Source: Vicinamibacterales bacterium (lineage in GTDB: Bacteria; Acidobacteriota; Vicinamibacteria; Vicinamibacterales; UBA8438). Taken from it: a DNA stretch of 64,000 nt. Position 1 is the first letter of the stretch. Every line of letters starts with the position of its first letter. Both the position numbers and the translations under genes were made by a program. Below are positions 3,817-61,500 of this stretch, in pieces. The stretch is from contig OY759970.1 in assembly GCA_963662965.1 (NCBI GenBank), positions 3,328,524 through 3,392,523 of the forward strand, read 5' to 3'. The notes under the pieces were generated by a model. That model saw only the letters and a list, made by a program, of their open reading frames with translations. It was not told the DNA's origin and did no database searches.

Positions 3817-4725
3817 ATGACGACACAGCGAACACTTAGACGTTCCGTCTCCTGCTCGGGTATCGGCCTACACTCGGGGCAGAAAGTCACCCTTCGACTC
3901 AAGCCTGCTCCGATCGATCACGGGATTCGCTTCAAACGACTCGATCTCGACGGTCTTGAGGTTTCCGCGACAGCTGAGCGGGTCGCGAGGATGAACTACG
4001 CGACCGAGTTGGCGCAGGATGCGGCTTCGGTTGGCACGGTCGAGCATCTGCTCGCGGCGCTGGTGGGACTCGGCGTCGATAACGTGAGCATCGAGTTGAA
4101 TCAGGCCGAAGTGCCGATCATGGACGGGAGCGCCGCGTCGTTCGTCTACTTAGTCCATGAAGCCGGTATCCACACGCTCAAGTCGCCTCGACGTTTTCTC
4201 AAGGTGGTGCGACCCATCACGCTGTCGCGCGGTGACAAGCGGATCGCGGTGTATCCGTCGGATTACTTCAAGGTCACCTACAGCATCAGCTTCGACCATC
4301 CGTTGCTGCGGCACCAATCCCGAACCCAACGTGTGACGGAGGATTCCTTCATCGAGGAGATCGCGCCGGCGCGCACGTTTGGTTTCCTCAAAGAGGTCGA
4401 ACAGCTTCGGCAAAAGGGGCTCGCCCTGGGTGGCTCGCTGGACAACGCGATCGTCCTGGGTGAGACAGGTGTCCTCAACGACTCGTTACGATTCGAGGAT
4501 GAGTTCGTGCGACACAAGATCCTCGACGTGATCGGCGACCTCGCGTTGGTCGGTCACCCGATCATCGGTCACGTTGTCGCGCACCGCGGCGGACATGCGC
4601 TCCACGCGAGATTTGCCCAGAAGATTCTTGATGATGTCGACGCCTGGCGGCTCGTCGAGTCGTCGGTTGACCCGGCGGACGACGCCCCCGCTTCGATCAA
4701 GGTCACCGTGCCCGCCAGCTCCTAG
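3817..4725 (+). CDS. lpxC: UDP-3-O-acyl-N-acetylglucosamine deacetylase
   Basis: MTTQRTL... N-terminus, GxGLHSG, PIMDGSA and HRGGHAL motifs. I prefer ATG 3817 over the TTG at 3793 in the ORF track. Confidence 0.92.
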   Translation: MTTQRTLRRSVSCSGIGLHSGQKVTLRLKPAPIDHGIRFKRLDLDGLEVSATAERVARMNYATELAQDAASVGTVEHLLAALVGLGVDNVSIELNQAEVPIMDGSAASFVYLVHEAGIHTLKSPRRFLKVVRPITLSRGDKRIAVYPSDYFKVTYSISFDHPLLRHQSRTQRVTEDSFIEEIAPARTFGFLKEVEQLRQKGLALGGSLDNAIVLGETGVLNDSLRFEDEFVRHKILDVIGDLALVGHPIIGHVVAHRGGHALHARFAQKILDDVDAWRLVESSVDPADDAPASIKVTVPASS

Positions 4726-4889
4726 TGGCCTGTAACAGCTGAATCAGTAACACTCCGCGGGCGTGGGGCATCCCGCCTGCCTGCGTTACTCCTCGGTCAC
4801 AAATGCCAGACTTTCTCCCTCGTCGCGCCTTGCCAGCTGGGTGCCGCGCGCCGCGGAGTGGTACTGATTCAGCTGTTACAGGCCACTAG
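4722..4889 (-). repeat. family A palindromic interspersed element, copy A1
   Basis: Arms 4722-4760 and 4851-4889 are complementary at 38 of 39 positions. Interior blocks are shared with A2-A6. Confidence 0.9.
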
Positions 4890-7297: not shown

Positions 7298-7457
7298 AAG
7301 TCGCGCTGCATTCGACCGACGATGCATCCGGCAAGGGCCCTTGTTGGTCTTCCATGTAGCGGGGTCGCATACTGTCGGTATTCTCCCTCGTCCCGCCTTG
7401 CCAGGCCGGGCGCCTCGCCGGTCTCGGTGCCACGCGCGACTTTCACCGCGGGCTCCT
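7283..7457 (-). repeat. family A element, copy A3
   Basis: Perfect 24-nt arms (7283-7306 / 7434-7457). Core CGGTATTCTCCCTCGTCCCGCCTTGCC. Confidence 0.9.
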
Positions 7458-8201
7458 AAGATGAGCTGACGGGCCGGTGGCCGGCGCCACGCTGAGGGCC
7501 CGCACGCTTCTCGCCCCCGCGTCGACCAGCACGGACGCACACGCCTCGACGGTCGCTCCGGTCGTCACGACGTCGTCTACCAAGAGGATGCGACGTCCGC
7601 GAATGGCCGCGGCGGTGCGGCGTCCGCCGCGCCATTCCCTGAGCCTGAACGCGCCGCCGACGGCGCGCAGACGGTCGCCGCGCGCCAGTACTGCCTGTGG
7701 GCGCGTGTGTCGCGTGCGGCGGAGCGCGTTGACGACCGGCGAGTCGAGACCGGCCGCCAAGTCGGCCGCTTGATTGAACCCGCGTCGCCAGCGCCGCAGC
7801 GGATGCAGCGGCACCGGCACGATGAGGTCGGTGTCCGAGAGCCAAACCTGGCCCGCGGTGCGCATCAGCTGCGTGAGTGGGACCGCGAGCGTTCGCCGGC
7901 CACCGTACTTGAGCGCATGCACGATCGCGCGCAAGGTTTCGTCATGTAGACTGACCGTTCGGCGCGGGGTTGTGAGTCCGGCGGAGCGGGTGCAGGACAC
8001 GCAGTATGCGGGCGGGGCTGCCGCGGCCCACAACGGGATGGCGATGCCGTAGAGATCGCAGACCGGTGGTTCGATTCGTGCGACCCGCTGCCAACAGTCG
8101 ACGCACATCCTACCGCGAGAGGGCGCAACCAGTAGTTCCTCGCAGACCGCGCACCGTGGTGCCCACGCCACCGCCAGCAGGGCGTCGACGACGTGTCGCA
8201 C
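7443..8201 (-). CDS. comF: ComF family phosphoribosyltransferase-like protein
   Basis: N-terminal CxxC...CxxC, and a C-terminal PRTase motif ILLVDDVVTTGATV. I chose GTG 8201, because upstream of it the long ORF overlaps rsfS. The last codons lie in repeat A3. Confidence 0.8.
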   Translation of the reverse strand: MRHVVDALLAVAWAPRCAVCEELLVAPSRGRMCVDCWQRVARIEPPVCDLYGIAIPLWAAAAPPAYCVSCTRSAGLTTPRRTVSLHDETLRAIVHALKYGGRRTLAVPLTQLMRTAGQVWLSDTDLIVPVPLHPLRRWRRGFNQAADLAAGLDSPVVNALRRTRHTRPQAVLARGDRLRAVGGAFRLREWRGGRRTAAAIRGRRILLVDDVVTTGATVEACASVLVDAGARSVRALSVAPATGPSAHLRSPR

Positions 8202-8232
8202 GATACTCGTGGTTGCCGACGCGTTGGGTGGA

Positions 8233-8640
8233 TCAGGATGGCTGCAAACCGGGTGGATCGCTCGGGCGGAGAGGAGAGATTTCGAGACGGGTCGCGCTTC
8301 CCCAGAGGCGCTCGAGGTCGTACTGGCGTCTCGCCTCCCGGGTGAAGACATGCACGATGACATCGAAGCAGTCCATGAGCACCCACTCCGCGTGGTCGTA
8401 CCCTTCGACGTGCGTGGGGCGCGTACCGTCCGCTTTGAGACGGGCGTCGATCGCATCGGTGATCGCCTTGACCTGTCGCGTGCTCTGACCCGAGGCGACG
8501 ACAAAGAAGTCGGTGAATGCGCCGGAGCCGCGTAGATCGAGGACCATGACGTTAAACGCCTTCTTGTCCTCCATCGCGCCGATCACGGTGCGCACCGCCG
8601 TCGGCACGTCGAGCGCCGCGGTCTCGGCAGGCTTACTCAT
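8233..8640 (-). CDS. rsfS: ribosome silencing factor RsfS (iojap)
   Basis: 135 aa. DFFVVASGQSTRQVKAI and WVLMDCFDVIVHVF motifs. ATGA overlap with the nadD stop. Confidence 0.9.
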   Translation of the reverse strand: MSKPAETAALDVPTAVRTVIGAMEDKKAFNVMVLDLRGSGAFTDFFVVASGQSTRQVKAITDAIDARLKADGTRPTHVEGYDHAEWVLMDCFDVIVHVFTREARRQYDLERLWGSATRLEISPLRPSDPPGLQPS

Positions 8641-9335
8641 GCAAACGGCTCACCACCAGACCTGCAGGCATAGAATCGATGGCTGGCGATATACGCTACG
8701 ACCGCTGGGGGGAGCAGGCCATCGATCGAGTCACCCCGCGCCACGCGCTCCCGAATGTCAGACGATGAGACATCGCGGGTGTCCGCGTCCACGAGCCAAA
8801 TAGCTGTCCGGTCTGCGGTTCCGAAGGTTACTGGACCGCGGCCACCGCCGGTCGTTGCCGTCCGCATGCGATCCGCCAGCGTCGGGAGCCGCTGGGGGAG
8901 TTGTGTGGCGGCGAGCCCTGGGCGAGAGACGACGACAAAGTGGCTCCGGTCAAGCAGCCTCGGGTAGTCGTGCCACTGCGCGATTTCTGCGAAGGCGTCG
9001 CCGCCGATGATGAAAAACAACTGCGCGGGGTTGTAGCCGGTCAGGGCGAGCTTCTGTAGCGTCAACGAGGTGTACGACGGCTCCGACGATGACGAGCGGA
9101 GCTCGATATCGCTCACACTGAGGCTCGCGTGGTCGGCCGTCGCGAGCTCCAGCATCGCGAACCGGTGATACCCCGACACCGGTTGCGCCGGTGCCTTGTG
9201 CGGCGGGACTCGGGACGGCACGAAGAGCACCTCGGGCAGCGAGACGGCGCGCTGCGCCGCTAGTGCGGCATCGAGATGGCCGAGATGGACTGGATCGAAG
9301 GTGCCGCCGAGGATGCCGATTCGTGACGCCACCAT
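8637..9335 (-). CDS. nadD: nicotinate-nucleotide adenylyltransferase
   Basis: GILGGTFDPVHLGHL (HxGH) motif and an SSSDIR C-terminal motif. ATG 9335 overlaps the obg stop by 1 nt. Confidence 0.9.
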   Translation of the reverse strand: MVASRIGILGGTFDPVHLGHLDAALAAQRAVSLPEVLFVPSRVPPHKAPAQPVSGYHRFAMLELATADHASLSVSDIELRSSSSEPSYTSLTLQKLALTGYNPAQLFFIIGGDAFAEIAQWHDYPRLLDRSHFVVVSRPGLAATQLPQRLPTLADRMRTATTGGGRGPVTFGTADRTAIWLVDADTRDVSSSDIRERVARGDSIDGLLPPAVVAYIASHRFYACRSGGEPFA

Positions 9336-12090: not shown

Positions 12091-12466
12091 AGATTTCCCT
12101 GAAGAGGTCGTAGTTCTGTTGAATATTAATGTCGTTCGGGGCGAGGTCGAGCGCCTCTTCGTAGGCCTCGAGCGCCTCGTCGAACATCCCCTTCTGCTCG
12201 TACGCGATGCCGAGGTTGTTCCAGGCCGCAGGATACGACGGATCGATTTCCGTGGCGCGCTTCCAGCGATAGGTCGCCTCATCCCAGAGCTCGCGCTGCG
12301 CCACTTTCATTCCGAATTCGACCTGCGCTCGCGCGTCGTCACGCACATCAGCCGAAAGGGTGGGCGCGGAAGCGCCAACGAGGGTGATGGCAAGAACAGT
12401 CAGAATGGTCGCAGCCCGTAGTGAAAGCCCCACTGCATTCGACCGGCGCTGCATTCCGTCTGCCAT
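12062..12466 (-). CDS. small secreted TPR-repeat protein
   Basis: Signal-peptide-like LRAATILTVLAITLVGASA, then TPR motifs (AWNNLGIAYEQKGMFDEALEAYEEAL). Candidate starts are 12466, 12454 and GTG 12433, all of them inside repeat A4. Confidence 0.65.
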   Translation of the reverse strand: MADGMQRRSNAVGLSLRAATILTVLAITLVGASAPTLSADVRDDARAQVEFGMKVAQRELWDEATYRWKRATEIDPSYPAAWNNLGIAYEQKGMFDEALEAYEEALDLAPNDINIQQNYDLFREIYDRLSENDR

Positions 12467-12583
12467 CGTTGCTCCTCGGTCAAATACTGCCGGTATTCTC
12501 CCTCGTCACGCCTCGTCCTGGCCGGCCGCTACCTTATTCAACTGGGGTCTCGATGCAACGCGGGGTTTCACCACGGGCTGCGA
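12409..12583 (-). repeat. family A element, copy A4
   Basis: Imperfect 34-nt arms homologous to those of A3. Core CGGTATTCTCCCTCGTCACGCC. Confidence 0.85.
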
Positions 12584-14029: not shown

Positions 14030-16441
14030 ATGGCGAAAACGCTGGTCATCGTGGAATCGCCGGCAAAGGCTAAGACGATCAACAAGTACCTGGGCCTGGA
14101 CTTCAAGGTCGTCGCGTCGATGGGCCACATCCGCGACCTCCCCAAGAGCAAGCTCGGGGTTGAGGTGGAAAACGGGTTCGCCCCGGTTTACGAATCGATC
14201 CCCGCCCGGAAGAAGGTCATCAAACAGCTAAAGGACGCCGCGAAGAGTGTGAGCCAGGTCTATGTCGCGACCGACCCCGACCGCGAAGGCGAGGCGATTG
14301 GCTGGCACCTGGCGCGTGAGCTCGGCACGAAGAAGCGCAAGGTCGGGCGCTTGATGTTCAACGAGATCACGAAGTCGGCCGTCTTGGCGGCGCTCGACAA
14401 GGTGGGTGAGATCGACCAGAAGATGGTCGACGCGCAGCAGGCCCGCCGCGTGCTCGACCGATTGGTCGGCTACAAGCTGAGCCCGCTCCTGTGGGACAAG
14501 GTGCGTCGCGGGCTGAGCGCCGGCCGTGTCCAATCGGTGGCGCTCAAGCTGGTGTGTGAGCGCGAGGCGGATATCGAGGCGTTCAAAGCGGAGGAATACT
14601 GGCACATCGTCGCCCGTCTGGCCGGCGGCTCTCCACCGGAGTTCGAGGCGAAGCTCGCCAAGAAGGGCACGAGCGCCATCAAGATCGGCAACGAGGCCGA
14701 AGCGAACGCAGCCCTCGCCGATCTCGACCAGGCCGCCTTCGTGGTCAAGTCGGTCGCCACCAAGGAGCGGAAGAAATCGGCCGCACCCCCGTTCATCACC
14801 AGCAAGCTACAGCAGGCGTCGCGGTTCCCGGTGAAGCGGACCATGATCGTCGCCCAGCAGCTGTACGAGGGGATCGAGCTTCCGGGCGAGGGGTCGGTCG
14901 GCCTGATCACCTACATGCGAACCGATTCGACCCGGGTCTCCGAACAGGCGATCGGCGACATGCGGGACTTCATCGGCGCGACGTATGGTCCTGACTTCGT
15001 ACCGACGAAGCCGAATCGCTACCGGGCTAAGAAGGGTGCGCAGGACGCGCACGAGGCGATCCGGCCGACGTCGACCGCCTACGATCCGGAGACGGTGCGG
15101 CCGCATCTGACGAAGGAGCAGTACTACCTCTACCGGCTGATCTGGAGCCGCTTCGTGGCCTCGCAGATGCCGCCCGCGACGTTCGACGACACCACCGTCG
15201 ATGTCGGCGCGGGAGACTACACGCTGCGGGCCAAGGGGTCGGTGCCGAAGTTCAGCGGCTGGATGAAAGTCTACGAGAAGGACACGGCCGAAGACGCGGC
15301 GAACACCGAGACCACGACCGATGCCGAGGCGGACCTGGACGCAGTCACCGGCCAGCTGCCGATGGTCGCGGAGGGCGACGCGCTCGCGCTCAAGAAGCTG
15401 ACGCCGGAGCAGAAGTTCACCCAGCCGCCGCCCCGGTTCAGCGAAGCGACGTTGGTCAAGGAGCTCGAAGAGAACGGGATCGGACGCCCGAGCACCTACG
15501 CGTCGATCATCGGGACGCTGCAGGCCCGCGAATACGTCGAGAAGCTCGAGGGGCGGTTCAAGCCGACCCGGCTGGGACGGCTCGTGACCGACCTCCTGGT
15601 CAAGAGCTTCGACGACATCATTCAGGTCGACTACACGCGTGAGATGGAGGACAACCTCGACAAAATCGAGGAGGGGGCCGCCGACTACGTCGGGACGCTG
15701 TCGAACTTCTACAAGAAGTTCAGCTCCGAGCTCGACAAGGCATCCAAGAAGATGCCGAACATCAAGGTGAACGGCCTGCCGAGCGACGAGACCTGCGACA
15801 AATGCGGGTCGAAGATGATCATCAAGGTCGGCAAGTTCGGGATGTTCCTCGCCTGCAGCGCATACCCGGACTGTCAGAACACCCGCGAGCTCGAGAAGAC
15901 CGAAGAGTCGGCCGACGAGCAGGAGGAGACCTGCGAGAACTGCGGAAAGCCGATGGTGGTCAAGCGTGGTCGATTCGGACAGTTCCTCGCCTGTACCGGG
16001 TACCCGGACTGCAAGACGACCCGCAAACTCATTTCGACGTCATCGGGCCTGGCCGCAGCGAAGCCAGACCAGCCGCTCGATGAGAAGTGTCCGAAGTGCG
16101 ACTCCCACTTGGTGATCAAACATGGACGTTTCGGGGAATTCACCGCGTGCAGCGACTACCCGAAGTGTCGGCATGTCAAGCTCAAGAGCATGGGCGTCGC
16201 GTGTCCGCGAGACGGCGGAGACATCGTGGAGCGCAAGTCGAGACGCGGTCGGGTGTTCTATGGCTGCAGCAACTATCCTGATTGCGATTTCACCGTCTGG
16301 AACAAGCCGCTCGATGAGGTGTGCCCGCAATGCAAGGCGCCGTTCCTCGTCGAGAAGGTGACCAAGCGCTGGGGCCGCCAGGTGTTGTGTCACAAGGACG
16401 ATTGCGACTACGCCCGCAACGAAGAGCTGGCGGCGGTCTAA
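14030..16441 (+). CDS. topA: DNA topoisomerase I
   Basis: 803 aa. TOPRIM N-terminus (LVIVESPAKAKTI), active-site region ITYMRTDS, and four C-terminal CxxC...CxxC zinc ribbons. Confidence 0.97.
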   Translation: MAKTLVIVESPAKAKTINKYLGLDFKVVASMGHIRDLPKSKLGVEVENGFAPVYESIPARKKVIKQLKDAAKSVSQVYVATDPDREGEAIGWHLARELGTKKRKVGRLMFNEITKSAVLAALDKVGEIDQKMVDAQQARRVLDRLVGYKLSPLLWDKVRRGLSAGRVQSVALKLVCEREADIEAFKAEEYWHIVARLAGGSPPEFEAKLAKKGTSAIKIGNEAEANAALADLDQAAFVVKSVATKERKKSAAPPFITSKLQQASRFPVKRTMIVAQQLYEGIELPGEGSVGLITYMRTDSTRVSEQAIGDMRDFIGATYGPDFVPTKPNRYRAKKGAQDAHEAIRPTSTAYDPETVRPHLTKEQYYLYRLIWSRFVASQMPPATFDDTTVDVGAGDYTLRAKGSVPKFSGWMKVYEKDTAEDAANTETTTDAEADLDAVTGQLPMVAEGDALALKKLTPEQKFTQPPPRFSEATLVKELEENGIGRPSTYASIIGTLQAREYVEKLEGRFKPTRLGRLVTDLLVKSFDDIIQVDYTREMEDNLDKIEEGAADYVGTLSNFYKKFSSELDKASKKMPNIKVNGLPSDETCDKCGSKMIIKVGKFGMFLACSAYPDCQNTRELEKTEESADEQEETCENCGKPMVVKRGRFGQFLACTGYPDCKTTRKLISTSSGLAAAKPDQPLDEKCPKCDSHLVIKHGRFGEFTACSDYPKCRHVKLKSMGVACPRDGGDIVERKSRRGRVFYGCSNYPDCDFTVWNKPLDEVCPQCKAPFLVEKVTKRWGRQVLCHKDDCDYARNEELAAV

Positions 16442-16444
16442 ACG

Positions 16445-16716
16445 TCAGACGGGGCGTGCGGCGACCAAGCTTAGACTGGGGGAATATCGCGCTCGGCCGA
16501 ACGGTCGAGCCTCGCGCGCTTTCCCCAGACCCCCTCGCTCGCTCACTCGTGGGGACCCCGAATGCCCCACTCCGTTCGCTAGCGTATGGTGTGGGACAGC
16601 CGAGTCATTCGAAGTACGATCAGGGCGCGCACGGCGCGCCCCCGCCGGCACGGAGTGGGGCGAAAGGGTCCCCGCGAGTGCTGGCCGGTGGGGTCGGGGC
16701 CGTAGGCCCCGTCTAG
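16445..16716 (+). repeat. family B element B1 (X hairpin + full Y module)
   Basis: X hairpin 16476-16528. Internal arms 16544-16575 / 16650-16680. GGGCGCGC-ACG-GCGCGCCC at 16623-16641. Terminal GGGGCC-GTA-GGCCCC at 16696-16710. Confidence 0.9.
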
Positions 16717-16719
16717 ATT

Positions 16720-18129
16720 ATGGTCACAATCATCGGCGGTGGATTGGCCGGCAGCGAGGCGGCATGGCAGGCCGCTTCGCGCGGCGTCCGGGTTTCCCTT
16801 CACGAAATGCGACCGGTGCGCATGACGGCGGTGCATCGTACCGACCGATTGGCGGAGCTCGTCTGTAGCAACTCGTTCCGCGGGGACAAGCTCGAGCATG
16901 CCGTGGGGCTTCTCAAAGAAGAGATGCGGCAGCTCGACTCCCTGGTCATGCGTGTGGCCGACGCGACCCGAGTGCCGGCGGGAGGGGCGTTGGCGGTCGA
17001 CCGCGATCGATTCGCCGAGGGGGTGAGCTCGGCACTCCACGCCGAGCAGCGGATCGAGATCCATCGGGAGGAGGTCGACCACCTTCCAGAGCCGGCTGGT
17101 ACGACCAAACCGGTCATCGTCGCCACCGGACCGCTGACGTCGCCGCGACTGTCGGCCGACGTCACCGCGCTCATCGGTCGTGAGCAGCTGTACTTCTTCG
17201 ACGCGATCAGTCCGATCGTGCACGCAGAGTCGATCGACCACGGGAGAGTGTTTCGGGCGTCGCGCGCCGGACGCGGGAAGCCTGTCGAGGACGCCGCGCC
17301 TGGACGCGCATGCGGGGACGACACAGGAGACGGTGATTACCTGAACTGTCCGATGACCGCCGACGAGTACGGTCGCTTCTATGACGCGCTGACCACGGCC
17401 GAGCTCGCCGAGGTGCACGATTTCGATCGAACGCCGTTCTTCGAGGGGTGTCTCCCGATCGAAGTGATGGCCCATCGTGGTGTCGACACGCTTCGGTTTG
17501 GACCGATGAAGCCGGTTGGCCTGGTCGATCCGAGCACCGGCCGGCGGCCGTACGCGGTGGTCCAGCTCCGCCAAGACAACCTGGCGGCCGATCATTTCAG
17601 CCTGGTCGGGTTTCAGACGCAGCTCAAGTGGCCAGAGCAACGGCGGGTGCTCCGTCTCATCCCGGGACTCGAGCACGCCGAGTTCGTACGACTCGGCATG
17701 ATTCACCGCAATACCTACATCAACGCGCCGACCGTACTCACACCGACGTGGCAAATGCGGAGCCGGCCAGACGTGTTCTTTGCCGGCCAGCTCTCCGGCG
17801 TCGAGGGATACGTCGAGTCTGCCGCGTCGGGTCTTGTCGCCGGCATCAATGCCGCCGCCCTCGCGCGCGGCGAGGTGAGCCGCGCGCTTCCCCGCACGAC
17901 AGCGATTGGCGCGCTGGGGTACTACGTGTCGCACGCGGCCGCCGAGAACTATCAGCCGACAAACATCGCGTACGGTCTGATCCCGTCGCTCGACAACCCG
18001 CCGCGCGGCCGTCAGGCGAGGCGCGGGGCGCTTGCGGCCCGCGCCCTGGCCGACCTGGCCGCGTGGCGGTCGCGCGGGTGGGGGGCGGACCATGATCAGA
18101 CCAGGGGAATATCACCCTCGGTCGCATGA
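16720..18129 (+). CDS. trmFO: methylenetetrahydrofolate-tRNA-(uracil54-C5)-methyltransferase
   Basis: VTIIGGGLAGSEAAWQ FAD motif and Gid/TrmFO-like length. The last 12 codons are encoded by repeat B2. Confidence 0.92.
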   Translation: MVTIIGGGLAGSEAAWQAASRGVRVSLHEMRPVRMTAVHRTDRLAELVCSNSFRGDKLEHAVGLLKEEMRQLDSLVMRVADATRVPAGGALAVDRDRFAEGVSSALHAEQRIEIHREEVDHLPEPAGTTKPVIVATGPLTSPRLSADVTALIGREQLYFFDAISPIVHAESIDHGRVFRASRAGRGKPVEDAAPGRACGDDTGDGDYLNCPMTADEYGRFYDALTTAELAEVHDFDRTPFFEGCLPIEVMAHRGVDTLRFGPMKPVGLVDPSTGRRPYAVVQLRQDNLAADHFSLVGFQTQLKWPEQRRVLRLIPGLEHAEFVRLGMIHRNTYINAPTVLTPTWQMRSRPDVFFAGQLSGVEGYVESAASGLVAGINAAALARGEVSRALPRTTAIGALGYYVSHAAAENYQPTNIAYGLIPSLDNPPRGRQARRGALAARALADLAAWRSRGWGADHDQTRGISPSVA

Positions 18130-18306
18130 CGGAGTCGCGGGCGCTTCCCCCGGACCCCCCTCGCTCGCTTGCGTATGTTGGGCGTAGCCGGCTTGTTCGA
18201 AGTACGAGCGGGGCGCGCAGGGCGCGCCCCAGCCGGCACGGAGTGGGGCAAATGGGGTCCCCACGAGTGCCGGCGGCGGGGTTCGGGGCCGCAGGCCCCG
18301 TCTAAG
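18094..18306 (+). repeat. family B element B2 (X + Y, with a 37-nt internal deletion relative to B1)
   Basis: Collinear with B1 except for loss of the left internal arm. The terminal hairpin is present. Confidence 0.9.
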
Positions 18307-18318
18307 TAAGACGGACTC

Positions 18319-19235
18319 ATGCAGCAGCACGTGCCGGCGTTTCTCGAGTTCCTGCGGCTGAATCGCAATGTGTCGCGCCACACCGTGCGCGCCTACGGCA
18401 GCGACCTGAAGCAGTTCTTCGCGTTTGCCAACGAACGGCTCCGTCACCCGCTCGAGGCGGCTGATTTTGACCACCGTCTCGTCCGCGCGTTTCTCGGCAT
18501 GCTCTACGAAGAGGGCAAATCGCGCGCGTCGTCGGCACGGAAGCTCGCGACCATTCGGTCGTTCGCGCGATATCTACGGCGCGAAGGGCACCTCGAGCGC
18601 GATCTCAGCGCCCTGGTGTCGACGCCGAAGCTCGAGAGGAGGATGCCAGCGTACCTCGATCCAGATGAGGTCGCCGTACTCCTCGAGTCGCCTGACGCCG
18701 CAACCCCGCTCGGTCGCCGAGACCGCGCGATTCTCGAGCTGTTCTACGCGTCCGGCTTGCGGTTGAGCGAGCTTGTCGGCCTCGATCTCGATGATGTGAA
18801 CCTGAGCGGGCGACTCGTCCGTGTGCTCGGCAAGGGCGGGAAAGAGCGGATCGTGCCGTTCAACCGAACCACCGCGGCCGCCATACGCGTCTATCTCGGT
18901 GATCGACGCGCCCTCGTCAAAGGACGCGCCGCGAAGGCGGAGCCGTCACGCCGTCGCCGACGCGTCGCGCCGCGCGAGCCGCTGTTCGTGAATTATCGTG
19001 GGGGACGGCTTTCGAGCCGCAGCGTCGACCGGCTGGTGCGGAGATACGTCATCCGGTCGAGTGCGCGGCTCGCCATCAGCCCGCACGCGCTCCGCCATTC
19101 ATTCGCGACGCACTTGCTCGAACGGGGTGCCGACCTGCGGGCGATTCAGGAGCTGCTTGGACACGCGCGGGTCAGCACGACGCAGCGCTATACGCATGTG
19201 CGCAACTCACAAATCACCGAGCTCTACCGGCGCAC

Positions 19236-19251
<16 letters not shown>
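18319..19251 (+). CDS. xerC: tyrosine recombinase XerC/XerD family
   Basis: 310 aa. R...HxLRHSFATHLL...GH....TTQ.YTH catalytic motifs, in the conserved topA-trmFO-xerC context. Confidence 0.85.
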
Positions 19252-31382: not shown

Positions 31383-31572
31383 CTAGTGGCCTGTCCAAGC
31401 CAAAGCGACAGCGCTCCGCGGGCGGGGCATCCCGCAAGGGCTGGCGTTATGACCTCGCCTGGTGGGGTCACAAATGCCCAATTTGCTCCCTCGTCGCACC
31501 TTGCGGGGGCCGGGCGCGTCTGTCGATCAGCGACCACGGACTGCTGTCGATTTGGTTCGGACAGGCCACTGG
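31383..31572 (-). repeat. family A element, copy A2
   Basis: Same termini and interior blocks as A1. Over the 31-nt arms there are 26 Watson-Crick pairs plus 3 G-T pairs. Confidence 0.9.
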
Positions 31573-35964: not shown

Positions 35965-37494
35965 GTGAAAGTTCTTATCGCCAATCGAGGCGAGATCGCC
36001 GTCCGGATCATGCGTGCGTGTCACGAGCACGGGCTCGCCACGGTGGCGGTGTACGCCGACTGTGACCGACAGGCCCCCCATGTCCGCTATGCGGACCAGG
36101 CGGTGGCCCTTGAGGCCAACGAGCCGGCGAGCAGCTATCTCGCCGTCGAGAAGATCATCGCGGCGGCGCGGCAGACCGATGCCGACGCCGTCCATCCGGG
36201 TTACGGATTCTTGGCCGAGAACGGGACGTTCGCGCGTGCCGTGACCGACGCGGGGCTCACGTTCATCGGGCCGCCGGCCGACGTCATCGACCTTATGGGG
36301 AGGAAGACCGCGGCGCGTGCGGCCGCCGCGCAAGCCGAGTTCCCGACCATTCCCGGCACCGACGAGGCCCTGCCGGATGAGGCGAGCGACGCCGAGCTCC
36401 ACCGAGCGGGCGACGAGGTCGGATATCCGCTCTTCGTGAAGGCGGTGGCCGGCGGCGGTGGAAAGGGGATGCGGTTGGTTCGCGATCCTGACGTGTTGCG
36501 ACGCGCCATCGAGGGAGCTCGCTCAGAGGCGGCGTCGGCGTTCGGCAACGGCGCGGTGTATCTCGAGCGGTGCATCGAGCGTGGGCGCCACATCGAGGTG
36601 CAGCTGCTGGCGGACACCTACGGCACCGTCGTGCCGTTCGTCGAGCGCGAGTGCTCGGTGCAGCGACGTCATCAAAAGGTCATCGAGGAGACCCCGTCCC
36701 CGGTGATCAACGACCAGACGCGCCGGGCGCTCGCGGAGGCGGCGGCGCGGTTGGCCAAGGCGGTCGGGTACACGAACGCCGGGACGATCGAATGTCTGTA
36801 TGACGACACGTCCGAGGAGTTCTACTTCCTTGAGATGAATACCCGACTGCAGGTCGAGCATCCGGTCACCGAAATGGTGACCGGTATCGATCTCGTGCGC
36901 TGGCAGCTCCGCATCGCGCAGGGGGAGCGTCTCGACGTCGACCCTGCGCGAGCTCTCACCCCGGACGGGCATGCGATCGAGTGCCGCATCTACGCAGAGG
37001 ATCCGAACGCCGGGTTCATGCCGTGCCCTGGGCTTCTCGAGACGCATCGCACGCCAGCGGGACCCGGGATCAGAGTCGACGCCGGGGTAGCGGCCGGGTT
37101 CGAAGTGCCGGTGTTCTACGACTCGATGGTATCGAAAGTGATCGCGCACGCCGCCGACCGCCGGCAGGCGATCGAGCGGATGGCGCGTGCGCTCGCCGAA
37201 TACGACATCCACGGTGTTCAGACGACGATTCCGCTGTTCCGGTGGCTCTTGACCGACGCCGACTTCGTCGCCGGGAGGTTCGATACGACATATCTCGACC
37301 GCGCGCTGGCGGCCCGCGACGGCGCGCCGTTCGTGCAGCTGTCCGAAGAAGATGACGTCGTCGTCGAGGAGCTCGCGGTGCTCGCGGCCGCCGTGTCGGT
37401 GGCGCTCGACGGCGCCGGGTCCGCCGGGCGACGGTCGGCCGATGCTGACGCGAGCCGCTGGCGCCGGGCGGCGCGGATGGAGGGATTGCGGTAG
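35965..37494 (+). CDS. biotin carboxylase subunit of acetyl/propionyl-CoA carboxylase
   Basis: MKVLIANRGEIAVRI, ATP-grasp GGGGKGM, EMNTRLQVEHPVTE. No BCCP domain in this ORF. Confidence 0.93.
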   Translation: MKVLIANRGEIAVRIMRACHEHGLATVAVYADCDRQAPHVRYADQAVALEANEPASSYLAVEKIIAAARQTDADAVHPGYGFLAENGTFARAVTDAGLTFIGPPADVIDLMGRKTAARAAAAQAEFPTIPGTDEALPDEASDAELHRAGDEVGYPLFVKAVAGGGGKGMRLVRDPDVLRRAIEGARSEAASAFGNGAVYLERCIERGRHIEVQLLADTYGTVVPFVERECSVQRRHQKVIEETPSPVINDQTRRALAEAAARLAKAVGYTNAGTIECLYDDTSEEFYFLEMNTRLQVEHPVTEMVTGIDLVRWQLRIAQGERLDVDPARALTPDGHAIECRIYAEDPNAGFMPCPGLLETHRTPAGPGIRVDAGVAAGFEVPVFYDSMVSKVIAHAADRRQAIERMARALAEYDIHGVQTTIPLFRWLLTDADFVAGRFDTTYLDRALAARDGAPFVQLSEEDDVVVEELAVLAAAVSVALDGAGSAGRRSADADASRWRRAARMEGLR

Positions 37495-37556
37495 GGCGCG
37501 CACGGCGGCGCCCCCGCGAGTGCCGGCGACGAGGTTCGGGGCGGTAAGCCCCGTCT
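37494..37556 (+). repeat. family B truncated Y module (B4)
   Basis: GGGCGCGCACGGCGGCGCCC...CGCGAGTGCCGGCG...GGGGCGGTAAGCCCCGTCT. Confidence 0.75.
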
Positions 37557-37561
37557 GGGTA

Positions 37562-38095
37562 ATGATGCGGATCGAGATCGAGGTCGACGGGACGATGCAC
37601 GACGTCACAATCGATGCGATGACCAGCGCGCCGGGGCGCTTCCTCGTCTCCTGGGGCGGGACGACGCATGAAGTCGATGCACGCGTGGTCGAGCGCGATC
37701 GGCACGGGATGCTGCTGTCGCTCGTTCGGATGGGCGGCGATGCTACGAGTCGACAAGTCCGTTGCAGCGCGGTCGAGCGCGGGACGATGACGGTGAGGGC
37801 CGCCGGGGTCGATCACCGCGTCGTGATCAACGGGAGTCGTAGGCGGGTCGACCTCCCAGAGGCCGGCGATGGGGGCGGAGGTGTGTCCCGGTTGAAGGCG
37901 CCGATGCCAGGCAAGGTGGTCCGTGTCCTGGTCGCGCCGGGGGACGATGTCGACGCACGACAGCTGCTGGTCGTGGTCGAAGCGATGAAGATGGAGAACG
38001 AGCTGACCGCGGCACGTGCCGGTACCGTGACCGAGGTGCCGGTCAGCGAGGGGGACTCGGTCGAGTCGGGCCGGCTCCTCGTGGTGATCGAGTAG
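37562..38095 (+). CDS. biotin carboxyl carrier (biotinyl/lipoyl domain) protein
   Basis: C-terminal APMPGKVV...EAMKMENE biotinylation motif. ATG 37562 is the first ATG after repeat B4. Confidence 0.8.
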   Translation: MMRIEIEVDGTMHDVTIDAMTSAPGRFLVSWGGTTHEVDARVVERDRHGMLLSLVRMGGDATSRQVRCSAVERGTMTVRAAGVDHRVVINGSRRRVDLPEAGDGGGGVSRLKAPMPGKVVRVLVAPGDDVDARQLLVVVEAMKMENELTAARAGTVTEVPVSEGDSVESGRLLVVIE

Positions 38096-42357: not shown

Positions 42358-45320
42358 TGTTGCTCCCTCGTCACGCCGTGCACGGGCCCGGCGCGATCTG
42401 TGCCTGTCTCGTCCTCTGGGCGGGCCCGGCGGCGGCCGGGGCGGAGGTCGACGAATTCATCGGCCAGCGTGTGGTCGAGGTCGAGTTCGCCACAGATGGG
42501 ATCCCGATTAACGACCCCGCCGTTCGCGAGCTGGTGGAAACGACCGCCGGCGAGCCGCTCGCGATGCGCGAGGTCCGTGAGAGCTTGGCGCATCTCTTCA
42601 GCCTCGGTCGCTACGGCCACGTTGCGGTCGACGCCTACCCACGCGCCGGCGGTGTGGCGCTGCTGTATGAGCTGAGGCCGTTCGAGCTCGTCGAGCGCAT
42701 CGAGCTCTCCGGTAATCGGGTGCTCGCCGCCGACGACGTGCGGCGCGTCGTCGTCCAGCGCCACGGCGAGGTCTTCCCCGCCAGCGCGGCCGCCGCGGTG
42801 GCCGATACCGTGCGCGCGTACTACGCGGAGCGCGGTTTTCTGTCACCGCGGGTCGACGCGGAGCTGCGCGGGTCGGCGACCGAGCGCACCCTTCGCTTGA
42901 CGATAGTTGCTGGCGCGCGCGCCCGCGTCAATCGGTGGTTCATCACCGGCGTCGCCTCGGCGTTGCTCAACACGCGGCTGCGAGCTCGTCTGGGCCTCGT
43001 CGACGGCGACGTCTACGACGGCGCGAGGCTCGATCAGCGGTTGAGCGAGTACGAGGGCGAGCTCCGCGCGCTGCAGTACTACGAAGCGCGTCTCTCGCAC
43101 ACGGTGGAGCGACGCACAGACGCGGACATCGACGTCCGTTTGAACATCCTGCGCGGACCGCGCATCACGGTGACGCTGAGCGGCGACGAGGTGCCGGACG
43201 CGCGGCTCGGCGATCTGGTGCCGGTCGGACGCGAGGCGAGCGTCGACGAGGACTTGCTTGAGGATGCCGACCGACGGATCGCGGCGCACTTGCGGTCGCT
43301 CGGCTACCGCGACGCGGACGTGACGCACACGGCCGACGGGACCGCGGACGAGCTGTCGATCGTCTTCGCGGTGACCCGCGGCCCGTTCTATCAGGTGGTT
43401 GCCGTGCGGATTCGAGGCAACGCGAGCGTGCCGACCGAGGTGCTCCTGCCGGTGGTCAACATCACGTCTGGCGATCCGCTCATTGTCTCCGACGTGGACG
43501 CCGGGTTGGCCGCCATCGAGGAGCGCTACCAGCAGCTCGGCTATGCGACCGTGCGCGCGACCAGAACCTTCGCCGACATCGCGACCGGTGGCGCTGCGGG
43601 TACCGTGATGCAGACCGTCGATATCGACATCGTCGAAGGGCCGCGGATGACCATTGCCGCCTTGGTGTTCGACGGGGTCGAGGCGTGGCCGTTTGACAGA
43701 CTCGAGGAGACGGTCGCCGCACGTATCGGCGAGCCTTTCTACGGACCGCAGGTGAGCGACGACCGCGATGCGCTGCTGTCGCTCTATCTCAACGACGGGT
43801 ACGAGCAGGCCGTGGTGGTCGTCGAGCCGCAGTTTGCGGACGACCTGCGCACCGTCGACCTGGTCTTCCGCGTCGACGAAGGGCGTCAGGTACTCGTCGA
43901 TCACGTGTTGATCGTCGGTAACCGTCGGGTCGACTCCGAGACGATTCGTGGCGAGCTCGCCCTCGCGCCCGGCGACCCGCTTGGTCTCGACGACGTCGCG
44001 GAGACCCGTCGCCGGCTCAACGCGCTGGGGATGTTTCGTGGACTCGATATCCGGGAGTTTAGCCATGGTTCTGTCGACCGACGCGATGTCATCATCGAAG
44101 TGGAGGAGGCGCCGGCGACGACGCTGGCGTACGGCGGCGGGCTCGAAGTGTCGCAGCGGATTCGGCGTGACTCGGGCGACGAGGGAAGCGCCGCGGTGGA
44201 GCGGATCGAGTTTGCGCCGCGCGGATCGTTCCAGATCGGGCGCCGCAACCTGTGGGGCAAGAACCGGTCGATCAACTTGTTTACCCGTGTGAGTGTCCGG
44301 CGTAAGAACGATCCATCCGAGCCGGGTTCGGCTGACGCGGCCCGAACGCTTGGGTTTAACGAGTACCGGGTGTTGGGGACCTATCGCGAGCCGCGGTCGT
44401 TCCGGCTGCGCTGGGATGTGCTGATGTCGGGTTACGTGGAGCAGGCGATTCGACCCGGGTTCGATCTGTTCACCCGCGGTGTCACGGCACAGGTGGTGGC
44501 GGGATCCGGTGATAGGACGAGCACGACGCTCGGCTACCGCCTGGGGAGCAACGACACGTCGAATCGACAGCTGGACCCCGAGGACAGCAATATCGTCGAC
44601 CGACTGTTTCCGGAGGTGCGACTGTCGTCATTCCGGCTGAGCCGGCTTCGGGACACCCGCAACGATCCGTTCGATCCGACACGCGGCACGGTCCTCACCG
44701 CCGAAACCGAGCTCGCCGCTCGCTCGATCGGGTCCGCGGTCGGGTTTACCAAGACATTTCTGTCCGGTTCGTTCTTCCGCGAGCTGCGCGACGCGTCTCG
44801 TCTCGTGTTTGCCGCCAGTGCACGTGTCGGTCTGGCGTGGGGTTTTCCGCAGACGTATCATCTCGAGGGCCCCGGCGGACCGATGGAGGTGTCGCAGACG
44901 CTCGACCTGCCGATCAGCGAGCGCTTTTTTGCCGGAGGGGATAACACCGTGCGTGGATTCGCCCTCGACCGCCTGGGCGATCCGCGTGAGGAACCGGGCG
45001 GCACCATCGATCAGGACGGCTTTCCGCAGGGCGGTAACGCCATGCTCATCTTTAATACCGAGCTACGTGTGCGGCTGACGCGCGCCGTCGGACTCGTGAC
45101 GTTTCTCGACGCCGGGAACGTTTATGATGATGTGCAGCACGTGAGCCTGCGTCGTATCCGCGGCGGCGCTGGCTTCGGGGTACGGTACAGTTCGCCAGTC
45201 GGACCGATTCGCGTCGACCTCGGCTTCAAGCTCGGTGAGCGGCACTTCTTTGGTGACGAGACGAGTCGGACGCAAGAACCGCTCACCGCGCTTCACATCA
45301 GCATCGGCCAAGCGTTTTAG
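42357..45320 (+). CDS. Omp85-family outer membrane protein assembly factor (BamA/TamA-like)
   Basis: Signal peptide, several POTRA-like units, C-terminal barrel with RGF/GGD-type motifs (FFAGGDNTVRGF) and a terminal ...ISIGQAF. ATG 42357 overlaps the tamB TGA. Confidence 0.85.
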   Translation: MLLPRHAVHGPGAICACLVLWAGPAAAGAEVDEFIGQRVVEVEFATDGIPINDPAVRELVETTAGEPLAMREVRESLAHLFSLGRYGHVAVDAYPRAGGVALLYELRPFELVERIELSGNRVLAADDVRRVVVQRHGEVFPASAAAAVADTVRAYYAERGFLSPRVDAELRGSATERTLRLTIVAGARARVNRWFITGVASALLNTRLRARLGLVDGDVYDGARLDQRLSEYEGELRALQYYEARLSHTVERRTDADIDVRLNILRGPRITVTLSGDEVPDARLGDLVPVGREASVDEDLLEDADRRIAAHLRSLGYRDADVTHTADGTADELSIVFAVTRGPFYQVVAVRIRGNASVPTEVLLPVVNITSGDPLIVSDVDAGLAAIEERYQQLGYATVRATRTFADIATGGAAGTVMQTVDIDIVEGPRMTIAALVFDGVEAWPFDRLEETVAARIGEPFYGPQVSDDRDALLSLYLNDGYEQAVVVVEPQFADDLRTVDLVFRVDEGRQVLVDHVLIVGNRRVDSETIRGELALAPGDPLGLDDVAETRRRLNALGMFRGLDIREFSHGSVDRRDVIIEVEEAPATTLAYGGGLEVSQRIRRDSGDEGSAAVERIEFAPRGSFQIGRRNLWGKNRSINLFTRVSVRRKNDPSEPGSADAARTLGFNEYRVLGTYREPRSFRLRWDVLMSGYVEQAIRPGFDLFTRGVTAQVVAGSGDRTSTTLGYRLGSNDTSNRQLDPEDSNIVDRLFPEVRLSSFRLSRLRDTRNDPFDPTRGTVLTAETELAARSIGSAVGFTKTFLSGSFFRELRDASRLVFAASARVGLAWGFPQTYHLEGPGGPMEVSQTLDLPISERFFAGGDNTVRGFALDRLGDPREEPGGTIDQDGFPQGGNAMLIFNTELRVRLTRAVGLVTFLDAGNVYDDVQHVSLRRIRGGAGFGVRYSSPVGPIRVDLGFKLGERHFFGDETSRTQEPLTALHISIGQAF
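42358..42405 (-). repeat. family A core fragment (A6) embedded at the tamB/Omp85 junction
   Basis: TTGCTCCCTCGTCACGCCGTGCACGGGCCCGGCGCG matches the A2 core TTGCTCCCTCGTCGCACCTTGCGGGGGCCGGGCGCG at 29 of 36 positions. Confidence 0.6.
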
Positions 45321-45960
45321 TGCGCTGCTGTCGGCCCTCCTGTGGGCGGCACCGCTCGGAGCCGTTGCCCAGAGCCTCGACCGCATCGTGGCCGTCGTCG
45401 CCGGCCACGTCATCTTGGCCTCCGACGTGAGGGCCTTCCTCGAGTTCGGCCTCATCGAGGTCGAGGCTTCTGGCTCTGTCTCTGACTCTGAAGAAGACGA
45501 GCGCACGCGCGCCGGATGCGCCCTGACGCGGCTGATCGAGCGACGTCTCGCGCTCGACGAGGTCGACCGATATCGGGTGGCCGCGCCGCGGCCAGAACAG
45601 ATCGATCGCGAGCTCGCTGCCCTCCGCGGTCGCTTCAGCGATGAGGAGGCGTTTGCGGATCTCCTGGCGGCGGTGGGGCTCGGACTGCCGGACCTCAGGC
45701 AGATTCTGCGGGACAATGTCCGGCTGGAGGCGTATCTCGCTGGACGCTTTGGTTCGGCGGATCGGCTGAGTGAGTCGGAGCTGCGCGCCTACTACGCCGC
45801 CAACCGTGACGACTTCACCGACGCGGGGCGCGGCGTCGCGTTCGACACGGTTCGTGCGCAGGTCCAAGCCCGGCTGTGGGCGGAGCGGCGCGCGGCCCTC
45901 GTCGAGAACTGGACTGCCGGTCTCGCTCTCCGCGGGGACGTGACCCGGTTTGAGCCATGA
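45235..45960 (+). CDS. periplasmic SurA N-terminal-domain-like chaperone
   Basis: Signal-like LSALLWAAPLGAVAQS, then DRIVAVVAGHVILASDV and helical repeats. The start is uncertain (GTG 45235, TTG 45250 or GTG 45253) and all candidates overlap the Omp85 3' end. The stop lies at the edge of repeat B3. Confidence 0.55.
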   Translation: MSGTSLVTRRVGRKNRSPRFTSASAKRFSALLSALLWAAPLGAVAQSLDRIVAVVAGHVILASDVRAFLEFGLIEVEASGSVSDSEEDERTRAGCALTRLIERRLALDEVDRYRVAAPRPEQIDRELAALRGRFSDEEAFADLLAAVGLGLPDLRQILRDNVRLEAYLAGRFGSADRLSESELRAYYAANRDDFTDAGRGVAFDTVRAQVQARLWAERRAALVENWTAGLALRGDVTRFEP

Positions 45961-46113
45961 TCAGACCGGGGGAATATCGCGCTCGATCGAGCAACGGAGT
46001 CTCGCGCGCTTCCTGGTCAGACGGGGCCTGCGGCTCCGAACCCCGCCGCCGACACTCGCGGGGGGCCCCTTTGCCACGCTCCGTGCCGGCGGGGGCGCGC
46101 CGTGCCCGCCCTG
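45959..46113 (+). repeat. family B element B3 (X module followed by an inverted Y module)
   Basis: The X module is collinear with B1/B2. 46017-46110 is the reverse complement of the B1/B2 Y module. Confidence 0.88.
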
Positions 46114-46261
46114 ATCTCAGACTCCCCCATCCGGGCTCAGCGAGAGCGATTGTTTCCCGGCCTGCGTGGGTGCCGGTCGGACATATCCCGAAAGAAACCG
46201 TCTGCCTTTAGCGAGACGAAGCACCCCTGTATCTGAGGGCGGCTGGATGTTTCCCGAGGCG

Positions 46262-46278
46262 AGTCGGCCCCGTCTAGG
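46262..46278 (-). repeat. family B terminal motif fragment (B6)
   Basis: The minus strand reads CCTAGACGGGGCCGACT, the same CTAGACGGGGCC terminus as the Y ends. Confidence 0.5.
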
Positions 46279-47065
46279 TAATCACCTCCGCGGCGGTGAC
46301 CGCCAGGATGATCTCGACCAGATTGAAGCCCGCGTGGCTCACCATCGATGCGACGATGCTCCGTCGCACGAGGTAGAGCGCCCCCCACGCAGCCCCAAGC
46401 GCGCCGGTCATGACGGCGGCGTCCCACCCCTGGACGTGGTGCCCGAGGCCGAACGCGACGCTGAAGATCACGAGGCCAAGCCAGCCCCCGCCAAGATGTT
46501 GCTCGAAGCGACGCAGGATAAACGCGCGCTGCAGTTCCTCCCGTACCCCACCGGCGATCACGACCACCAGGCCGAACAGCAGTGCCCGCGCCGGGGTGTC
46601 GAGCATCGACTCCAGCGGATTGTCTGGGACATTCTGAAGCGACGGCGCAATGGTGCGAATCAACAGCAGTCCGCCGATCGCGATGAACACGAGTAAGGGA
46701 ATCAGCAGGACGCCCAGCGCCGCTTCTCGGCCCGGAGTCCAAGCGCCGGCGACGAGGTCCCGCAGCGACTCGCCGTGTGCGCGCAGGAAATAGACAACGA
46801 GTGCCACAATGAAGGCGGCGTCGACGAGCGAGAGGGTGACGATGTAGGCGAACGACAGCTGACCGTCGCTGGCGACCGCCTGCATCCCGATGCTGTTCAG
46901 TATCAGCGCCAAGGCGAGCTGCGTCGGGAACCCGGAGCAGATGAGCACCTCGGTCAAGGCTGTGGTCGCTCCACCGGGGCCGGCGTCGGTCGTGGGGACG
47001 GTGATGGCGTCTGGGGCGGAACCGAGCGACTCGCCGGGCGGGGAGGTCGAGTCCGGCTCCGTCAT
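46274..47065 (-). CDS. CPBP family intramembrane glutamic endopeptidase (CAAX/Abi)
   Basis: Motifs GVREELQRAF, FSVAFGLGH, HAGFN. Multiple TM spans. Confidence 0.8.
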   Translation of the reverse strand: MTEPDSTSPPGESLGSAPDAITVPTTDAGPGGATTALTEVLICSGFPTQLALALILNSIGMQAVASDGQLSFAYIVTLSLVDAAFIVALVVYFLRAHGESLRDLVAGAWTPGREAALGVLLIPLLVFIAIGGLLLIRTIAPSLQNVPDNPLESMLDTPARALLFGLVVVIAGGVREELQRAFILRRFEQHLGGGWLGLVIFSVAFGLGHHVQGWDAAVMTGALGAAWGALYLVRRSIVASMVSHAGFNLVEIILAVTAAEVIT

Positions 47066-50160: not shown

Positions 50161-50171
50161 TCCTTATTCTC

Positions 50172-50192
50172 GACGGGGCTGGCGGCCCCGTC
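50172..50192. repeat. family B terminal-hairpin-like unit (B5)
   Basis: GACGGGGC-TGGCG-GCCCCGTC immediately after the nrdJ stop, followed by TGAG as at other Y ends. Confidence 0.55.
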
Positions 50193-50209
50193 TGAGATTG
50201 GACCGGCGT

Positions 50210-50230
50210 GGGGCGTTCGGGGCCCCTTTT
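50210..50230 (+). terminator. intrinsic terminator candidate after nrdJ
   Basis: GGGGC-GTTCGGG-GCCCC followed by TTTT. Confidence 0.55.
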
Positions 50231-52109: not shown

Positions 52110-52124
52110 CAGCCATCTCATAAA

Positions 52125-52250
52125 GGCGCCGGCATTCGGCCGCCGATGCATCCCGCCAGGGGCGGCGTTGGGCGTTGCATGAGCGCGGTCGAATACTACC
52201 GGTATTCTCCCTCAGTCTTTGGCCGGGAGCGATATTCCCCTGGTCTGATC
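52125..52250 (-). repeat. family A element A5, fused to a family B X-module end
   Basis: Core CGGTATTCTCCCTCAGTCT, followed by the reverse complement of GATCAGACCAGGGGAATATCG at 52230-52250. Confidence 0.8.
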
Positions 52251-52580
52251 TTGGCCCCATCCGAAGTAGGCGAGGGCGACTAGCAGCGCGCTAAATCCGG
52301 CGCGCGCCAGTTGGGGCGCGAGCAAGAGCTCACCGTAGACGTGCGGATCATTGTGGAGGCTGATCGACTGAAGCCCGAGGAGGCCGCTGACGGCCAGCGC
52401 CAGTCCGCCGGGGAGCGAGACCCGCACCAACGCCGCGGCCAGCGCGAGGACGCCGCCCGAGAGCATCCGCCACAGGTTGGCCCACCACTCGAGCGTGCCC
52501 GAGCCGATGAGGTCGGCGACACCGACGACAACGTCGTACACGCCGTAGACCAACATCCCGAGCGCCGCGGCTCTCAGCAT
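52212..52580 (-). CDS. small integral membrane protein (about 4 TM)
   Basis: 122 aa, hydrophobic. The last 14 codons (QDQTRGISLPAKD) lie in repeat A5. Confidence 0.5.
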   Translation of the reverse strand: MLRAAALGMLVYGVYDVVVGVADLIGSGTLEWWANLWRMLSGGVLALAAALVRVSLPGGLALAVSGLLGLQSISLHNDPHVYGELLLAPQLARAGFSALLVALAYFGWGQDQTRGISLPAKD

Positions 52581-54629: not shown

Positions 54630-54757
54630 ATGGATGCGCGGCCAGGCTACAAACGCGCGGTCGAGCATCGATTGGCTCGATTGGAGTGCAAGATTGCGAG
54701 TGGTAGTGCCGGTTTGTTGCGCCCTGCGCCCTGCGCCCTGCGCTGTTCCGGAGAATG

Positions 54758-61413: not shown

Positions 61414-61500
61414 TGGTGCGAAAGGGGGGAGTTGAACCCCCATAGCCTTGCGGCTACCGGATCCTAAATCCGGCGCGTCTGCCAATTCCGCCACTTTCGC
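61414..61500 (-). tRNA. tRNA-Leu (anticodon UAG), class II with long variable arm, CCA encoded
   Basis: Folded by hand. Acceptor GCGAAAG/CTTTCGC. Anticodon stem CCGGA/TCCGG with loop TTTAGGA. Variable arm AGCC-GCAA-GGCT. T arm GGGGG-TTCAACT-CCCCC. Discriminator A plus CCA. Confidence 0.95.

Follow-up and report, generated by a model that had tools for sequence, protein, structure and literature searches.

A hairpin-rich spacer between topA and trmFO is probably a composite copy of a lineage-specific mosaic repeat in an uncultured member of the Vicinamibacterales

The window analysed here, a 64,000-nt stretch of contig OY759970.1 from a Vicinamibacterales bacterium (assembly GCA_963662965.1), carries topA (14030-16441; TIGR01051 match, 806 bits) followed by trmFO (16720-18129; NF003739 match, 635 bits) and, 3' of the latter, a gene for a XerC/XerD-type tyrosine recombinase (18319-19251). 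The topA-trmFO gap of 278 nt (16442-16719) is filled, as the initial annotation had proposed, by a 272-nt hairpin-rich stretch, B1 (16445-16716). A search for inverted repeats combined with direct reading of the sequence found all the hairpins named in that annotation in their places. The terminal GTCTAG, which had been put 4 nt before the trmFO ATG at 16720, is separated from it by 3 nt (ATT).

B1 can be read as a series of modules in the order T'-X-S'-L-P-S-T, where T' is an inverted remnant and S' an inverted extra copy (Table 1). The arms of the X hairpin lie at 16476-16491 and 16513-16528, those of the S stem at 16644-16651 (GCCGGCAC) and 16678-16685 (GTGCTGGC), with one G:T included, and GTCTAG (16711-16716) comes directly after the T hairpin, GGGGCC-GTA-GGCCCC (16696-16710). 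The long-range inverted repeat (16544-16575 and 16650-16680) consists of two blocks, of 15 nt (93% complementary) and 12 nt (100%), and this helix is formed by the pairing of S' with S. An outer inverted repeat that the initial annotation did not contain (16447-16462 with 16699-16714; 16 nt, 88%) closes all of B1; T', which matches 46016-34, pairs with T in the minimum-energy fold. S' is bordered by TCGCT direct repeats (16539-16543 and 16576-16580), a single case.

Table 1. Modules of B1 and other copies of the repeat family, in window coordinates (negative numbers lie upstream of the window)
Feature	Coordinates	Strand	Description
T' remnant	16444..16462	-	Inverted degenerate T-module end (AGACGGGGCGTGCGGC); left arm of the outer inverted repeat of B1
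X module, B1	16465..16543	+	Left end CCAAGCTT-AGAC-TG-GGGGAATATC; hairpin 16476-16528; then tail CCCCCTCGCTCGCT
S'	16544..16575	-	Additional inverted copy of the 32-nt S unit; missing from B2
L linker module, B1	16576..16622	+	TCGCTAGCGTATGG...TTCGAAGTACGATCA; common to B1 and B2
P module, B1	16623..16641	+	Perfect palindrome GGGCGCGC-ACG-GCGCGCCC
S module, B1	16644..16685	+	Long imperfect hairpin, GCCGGCAC/GTGCTGGC around TGGGG...CCCCG
T module, B1	16690..16719	+	Hairpin, GTCTAG, ATT; abuts the trmFO ATG; right terminal inverted repeat of the element
B2	18090..18318	+	Canonical X-L-P-S-T, between trmFO and xerC
B3, X half	45955..46013	+	Source of the TGA stop codon in the preceding + strand gene (45235-45960)
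B3, inverted P-S-T half	46014..46116	-	Downstream of a convergent - strand gene (46274-47065)
P-T deletion derivative without S	37493..37562	+	Fills the gap between biotin carboxylase (accC-like) and BCCP-like genes
X, 5' half	52218..52263	-	Overlaps a - strand gene (52212-52580) at its 3' end; cut off by an IS256-end-derived repeat
X alone and short S fragment	-4890..-4837		Extended region
P-S-T	-3205..-3106		Between convergent genes
P-T, S deleted	69282..69357		Extended region; antisense example

The modules of B1 recur nearby. The region read comprised the window plus contigs of the same species (window coordinates -9281..71372, 80.7 kb), and ten sites in it carry family modules (X, L, P, S or T), about one per 8 kb. 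Self-comparison of the window placed relatives of B1 at five other locations, the one at 50168-50226 being weak, and bore out the earlier suggestion that B1, B2 and B3 belong to one family; positions 124-274 of B1 align with 18155-18304 of B2 at 82%. Four further sites came from the extended region (-9281..-9065, -4890..-4837, -3205..-3106 and 69282-69357). The X pattern had four matches in the window against 0.07 expected, with six X copies in the 80.7 kb, and a covariance model of P-S-T retrieved seven P-S-T or P-T copies from the same region, including that at 37493-37562 (46.9 bits, E 5e-8).

The canonical unit, X-L-P-S-T, measures ~210-230 nt and is represented by B2 and the copy at -9281..-9065. 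Elsewhere, modules are found whole, truncated or internally deleted and in both relative orientations. B3 is an X module on the + strand joined head-to-head to P-S-T on the - strand, and the P-T copies at 37493-37562 and 69282-69357 have lost S across short CCCC homologies. Antisense or truncated copies lie at 69282-69357, -9281..-9065 and 52218-52263. Every site in the 80.7 kb is intergenic or at the 3' end of a gene.

Four relatives (L117, L118, L119 and L121), reached via TrmFO homologues with 79-86% identity, have orthologous dprA-topA-trmFO-xerC regions, and none of them has B1 at the corresponding junction. L119 has a topA-trmFO gap of 3 nt and L117 one of 13 nt, and in each of these genomes trmFO and xerC overlap by 29 nt; L121 has gaps of 23 nt and 92 nt at the two junctions. 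In L118, the 197-nt topA-trmFO gap is filled by an unrelated MITE with CTAG ends (family A) and trmFO overlaps xerC by 29 nt. Both insertion sites, that of B1 and that of B2, are unoccupied in L117, L119 and L121, while L118 has an empty B2 site and a different repeat at the B1 site. The view that B1 separates genes that are tightly coupled elsewhere is therefore upheld by gaps of 3-23 nt in relatives, and invasion of the topA-trmFO junction by a different MITE in L118, independently, indicates that this site tolerates insertions. The P-S-T covariance model found no copy at E<=1 in ~85 kb from the relatives, and blastn concurred. Strain variants of the species (99% TrmFO and 99.9% DNA identity) all carry B1 and B2, and no presence/absence polymorphism of B copies was seen among these 99.9% identical strains, which gives recent mobility no support.

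The MITE of family A is 168 nt long and has CTAG at either end; its terminal inverted repeats measure 39 nt and are 97% complementary. Its copies are located at 4722-4889 and 31383-31570 of the window and at 8209-8390 of L118, and related segments are also present in L121 and L122. Its occurrence in L118, L121 and L122 gives it a wider distribution than that of the B family.

The left ends of all B copies conform to ..CCAWGNTY-AGAC-YN-GGGG and the right ends, when reverse-complemented, to ..AGAC-GGGG, so that the copies have in common the short and imperfect terminal inverted repeats TYAGAC-N-GGGG ... CCCC-GTCTRA. Together with a unit size of 210-278 nt, the lack of a conserved ORF, the many interspersed copies and the empty orthologous sites in relatives, these ends correspond to what is expected of MITEs. 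A conserved small ORF in X was considered and rejected: an ATG is found at the left end of only three of the six copies, and the frames downstream of it differ. B2 is flanked on both sides by CATG (also by CGGAC), in the only full junction pair that is readable; its left-hand ATG lines up with the start of the ancestral xerC, and CATG could represent the tip of the terminal inverted repeat.

No enzyme that could mobilise the family was identified in the 80.7 kb, where the sole nearby transposase belongs to the IS256 family and its element has ends unlike those of B. That element (Transposase_mut, 426 aa; L125 7310-8915, transposase 7385-8665), ~0.4-2 kb upstream of the window start, has 20-nt terminal inverted repeats, CCTAGAAGCCATCTCATAAA; these are unrelated to the B ends, and the element was rejected as an autonomous partner. 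Its ends are akin to other repeat fragments in the window, not to B. The transposase-proximal ~110 nt recur on their own with 76-81% identity at 52107-52213, 12437-12513, 7363-7429 and 4768-4833, and one such fragment cuts short the X copy at 52218-52263.

The palindromes of the family call for comparison with the REP, BIME and REPIN elements of E. coli (PMC3116915, PMC3337134, PMC3184786; the first two papers give the definition of REPINs). In that type of system, P, S and T would correspond to REP units, and a RAYT (an IS200/IS605-like tyrosine transposase present in single copy) would copy them in the form of single-stranded DNA hairpins; the S'/S pair of B1 would be a REPIN-like doublet. 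Both groups have GC-rich imperfect palindromes, which in the B family measure 19 nt (P), ~42 nt (S) and ~17 nt (T), against the 20-40 nt of REP-type units, and are 80-95% paired across copies; both form mosaic clusters of alternating orientation, and both are extragenic, dense and located at gene 3' ends. In keeping with this pattern are the inverted S'/S doublet of B1, the two halves of B3 that meet head-to-head, the high density of sites and the fact that no clear target-site duplication was seen. Otherwise, P, S and T keep a fixed order within a ~210-nt element that also includes the non-palindromic X tail and L and has shared terminal inverted repeats, which makes the family more MITE-like than REPIN-like. 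Furthermore, no RAYT or IS200-like gene is present among the called genes of the 80.7 kb, and no conserved GTAG-type head precedes the palindromes in this region. We therefore regard a REPIN-type system as unlikely, while allowing it some weight.

What set B1 apart in the initial annotation was its structure, by which a purpose-built structured RNA was implied. The + strand of B1 folds at -172 kcal/mol, compared with -131 +/- 5 for shuffled sequences (z -7.7; none of 200 shuffles was as good), and the - strand does almost as well (-159.5 kcal/mol, z -6.5). The z-scores are -3.0 for B2 on both strands, -0.7 for the full copy at -9281..-9065 and +0.2 for B3. The global fold of B1 is not a property of the whole family, and, since the other copies fold unremarkably, the exceptional stability of B1 stems from its private extras S' and T'.

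The local hairpins, by contrast with the global fold, are kept throughout the family. For P, S and T, 88% of the cells are paired, with seven compensatory pairs, whereas slid controls reach ~45%; helix 2 of S is 95% paired and has three compensatory pairs, e.g. GCCGGCAC/GTGCCGGC vs GCGGCCGC/GCGGCCGC. The X hairpin is moderately supported (75% of the cells paired), with its outer and middle stems kept and the inner one at 58%. Mismatched pairs comprise six G:T and six A:C, a balance that favours neither strand. Covariation, the lack of which the initial annotation had listed among refuting outcomes, is seen as compensatory changes in P, S and T and not as a strand-specific signal. Of the reading itself, the unusual structure has stood, whereas a dedicated RNA is poorly supported, given the empty junctions of the relatives, the mosaic of inverted and fragmentary modules, the unshared global fold, the lack of strand bias and the negative Rfam comparison; B1 is more probably the DNA-level repeat that had been mentioned there as the refuting alternative.

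A related possibility is domestication of the element as an RNA module that acts in cis at operon junctions. In the transcript, X (at stops) and P-S-T would act as intercistronic stabiliser or processing structures and would uncouple topA from trmFO and trmFO from xerC, either via differential decay, caused by exonuclease barriers and RNase III/E sites, or via ribosome stalling at hairpins close to stops. Apart from the very stable fold of B1, the compensatory changes in the local hairpins and the fixation of B1 and B2 in all strain variants seen, this proposal can draw on the placement of the modules. X lies in the sense orientation within ~32 nt of the upstream stop codon in five of its six copies, which is not significant at these numbers; P-S-T or P-T is in sense to a neighbouring gene in five of seven copies; and eight of ten module placements are in sense to an adjacent gene, again too few for significance. 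The sense placement of X near stops could hint at a role at the RNA level or at targeting. Precedents are available in the Correia elements, to which RNase III binds with cleavage or protection as the outcome (PMC2649163), and in the intercistronic hairpins that set differential decay in operons (PMC5927463). Even so, the same junctions lack the element in all four relatives, wobble mismatches show no strand asymmetry, no global fold is shared, and antisense and truncated copies exist. The placement also has a simpler account, namely that spacers are tiny and only insertions at gene ends survive: with ancestral spacers that were 3-23 nt long or negative, any tolerated insertion comes to lie right against the stop codon before it and the start codon after it, as B1 does, and gaps are filled in the same way at 37493-37562 and -3205..-3106. 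Domestication is, in our judgement, distinctly improbable. We see only a slim chance for its broader form, in which X and P-S-T constitute a lineage-specific toolkit of operon-junction RNA structures, with X in sense at stops and T flush to starts.

Strong GC hairpins directly 3' of a stop codon might also be taken for a transcription terminator or attenuator between topA and trmFO. A T-like palindrome, GACGGGGC-TGGCG-GCCCCGTC, is found directly 3' of the gene for B12-dependent ribonucleotide reductase (nrdJ), in the segment 50168-50235; the TTTT-tailed GGGGC...GCCCC hairpin that comes next looks, judged by eye, like a classical terminator. This neighbourhood of a T-like palindrome and a hairpin-plus-TTTT terminator speaks for such a role. 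However, none of the hairpins in B1 or B2 has a T-run after it, and a scan of 16300-18450 on both strands for sigma-70 promoter and intrinsic-terminator consensus sequences found none; trmFO has no recognisable promoter inside the element, and the relatives have no terminator at this junction. A terminator or attenuator is accordingly a very remote prospect.

Searches against known families were negative for B1. The Rfam comparison that the initial annotation had listed as a check matched no family to B1: at gathering thresholds the sole match in the window was a tRNA, and in E-value mode the best match scored 20 bits against a cutoff of 63.5 bits. The tRNA gene (61417-61500, - strand; 58.6 bits) is located upstream of a trigger factor-clpP-clpX-lon cluster; a look-up of the ORF at 61582-63015 gave nothing on record. 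A 16-nt X pattern hit 113 loci in genome contigs, all of them chance matches to a pattern that is too short, and a 23-nt X pattern gave two matches in JGI metagenome contigs, both by chance. The P-S core pattern had no matches in IMG/VR viral contigs, and blastn of B1 against plasmids gave none. An integron attC site or cassette was rejected on reasoning, since the flanking genes have housekeeping functions and their synteny is conserved. The heptanucleotide (GCGCCCT)n, repeated in tandem at 54719-54745 downstream of rpmE, differs in copy number between strains: the window (3 units), L127 (5) and L128 (12).

The insertions have also altered the ends of genes. Within B2, the X module encodes, at 18090-18129, the last 12-13 residues of TrmFO (..HDQTRGISPSVA) and its stop codon, which explains why TrmFO homologues cover only ~96% of the query, and B2 as a whole splits the trmFO-xerC junction. 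Another X copy forms the tail of gene 52212-52580, with which a DQTRGIS peptide is shared in the same frame. Three T-module ends lie 3-15 nt upstream of the next ATG (16711-16725, 18300-18321 and 37553-37567). The right end of B1, reverse-complemented (GACCATAATCTAGAC), matches the family left-end consensus (GACCATGATCAGAC) through the trmFO ATG-GTC, so that the region of the start codon may have come from the element or been overwritten by it.

Taken together, these data make it highly probable that B1 is one composite member of a family of MITE- or BIME-like mosaic repeats, interspersed and non-autonomous, that is specific to this species-level lineage. The mosaic repeat family is previously undescribed, and its behaviour resembles that of MITEs and of BIME/BOX-type mosaics.

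BOX repeats are built from boxA, boxB and boxC modules. Along with the RUP and SPRITE repeats of pneumococci, they are species-restricted, have been judged parasitic and alter gene ends, and all three are expected to act, through their secondary structure, on genes transcribed together with them (Croucher et al. 2011, PMC3049150). The B family is like them in being composed of small, highly structured interspersed repeats confined to one species or its closest kin, which insert at gene ends and modify reading frames. It differs in having no sequence similarity to them, in its modules (X, L, P, S and T), in being known from sequence alone and in its host, a GC-rich uncultured soil-type bacterium.

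Correia elements have terminal inverted repeats of ~26 bp and a TA duplication, whereas the terminal repeats of the B family extend over ~11-20 nt, and neither an IHF site (in B1 or B2) nor a promoter consensus was detected. In other respects, the Correia elements (CREE) of Neisseria, the enterobacterial ERIC sequences and the B family are similar: all are 100-270 nt long, with terminal inverted repeats and long hairpins, and are often co-transcribed within operons. Cleavage or protection of CREE by RNase III makes such a fate plausible for the 32-bp S'/S helix of B1. In Tn3-family transposons, the ends have GGGG at the very tip and run to ~38 bp; in the B family, GGGG is internal to TYAGAC and the arms match over only ~11-20 nt. 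TIMEs, which are Tn3-derived inverted-repeat miniature elements (PMC4133298), share with the B family a non-autonomous nature and the ability to generate mosaic structures. The possible 5-nt direct repeats, CGGAC at B2 and TCGCT around S', would fit a 5-bp duplication, each being a single case.

In the history that best accounts for these features, a unit inserted into a topA-trmFO spacer that was once 3-23 nt long. S' and T', the additional inverted modules of B1, create its long-range helices and its extreme fold. The family probably spreads, or once spread, as a non-autonomous element, and P, S and T would be kept because the repeat family itself needs them; they could serve as recognition hairpins for the enzyme or recombination process that spreads it. 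For the host, B1 is most likely a tolerated passenger, with incidental effects at the transcript level. The 278-nt structured spacer would replace the translational coupling of topA and trmFO, the stem-loops of B1 in a read-through transcript could block 3'-5' exonucleases, and the S'/S duplex is a possible double-stranded substrate of RNase III. Besides the Correia elements, precedents for such effects are the protective intercistronic hairpins of operons (PMC5927463) and REP hairpins, which Liang, Rudd and Deutscher reportedly found in 2015 to stall ribosomes when near stop codons. Sister copies rewrite the ends of genes, the C-terminal tail of TrmFO being one case.

Should the less favoured toolkit reading be true, spread of the repeats would reshape both the translational coupling and the differential mRNA decay of many housekeeping operons, including topA-trmFO-xerC and accC-BCCP, and core genes would receive stop and start codons, as well as C-terminal tails, from the ends of the elements. 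On the preferred reading, as a lineage-specific mosaic repeat, the result is mainly one of curation, in that what looked like a striking candidate for a structured RNA has proved to be an inserted repeat. It documents a dense mosaic repeat family in an uncultured GC-rich bacterium, whose members split junctions that are coupled or overlapping in relatives (topA/trmFO and trmFO/xerC) and rewrite the C-terminus of TrmFO. Such elements can mislead pipelines for the discovery of ncRNAs and riboswitches, and they could be of use for marking strains or as natural experiments in which translational coupling has been lost.
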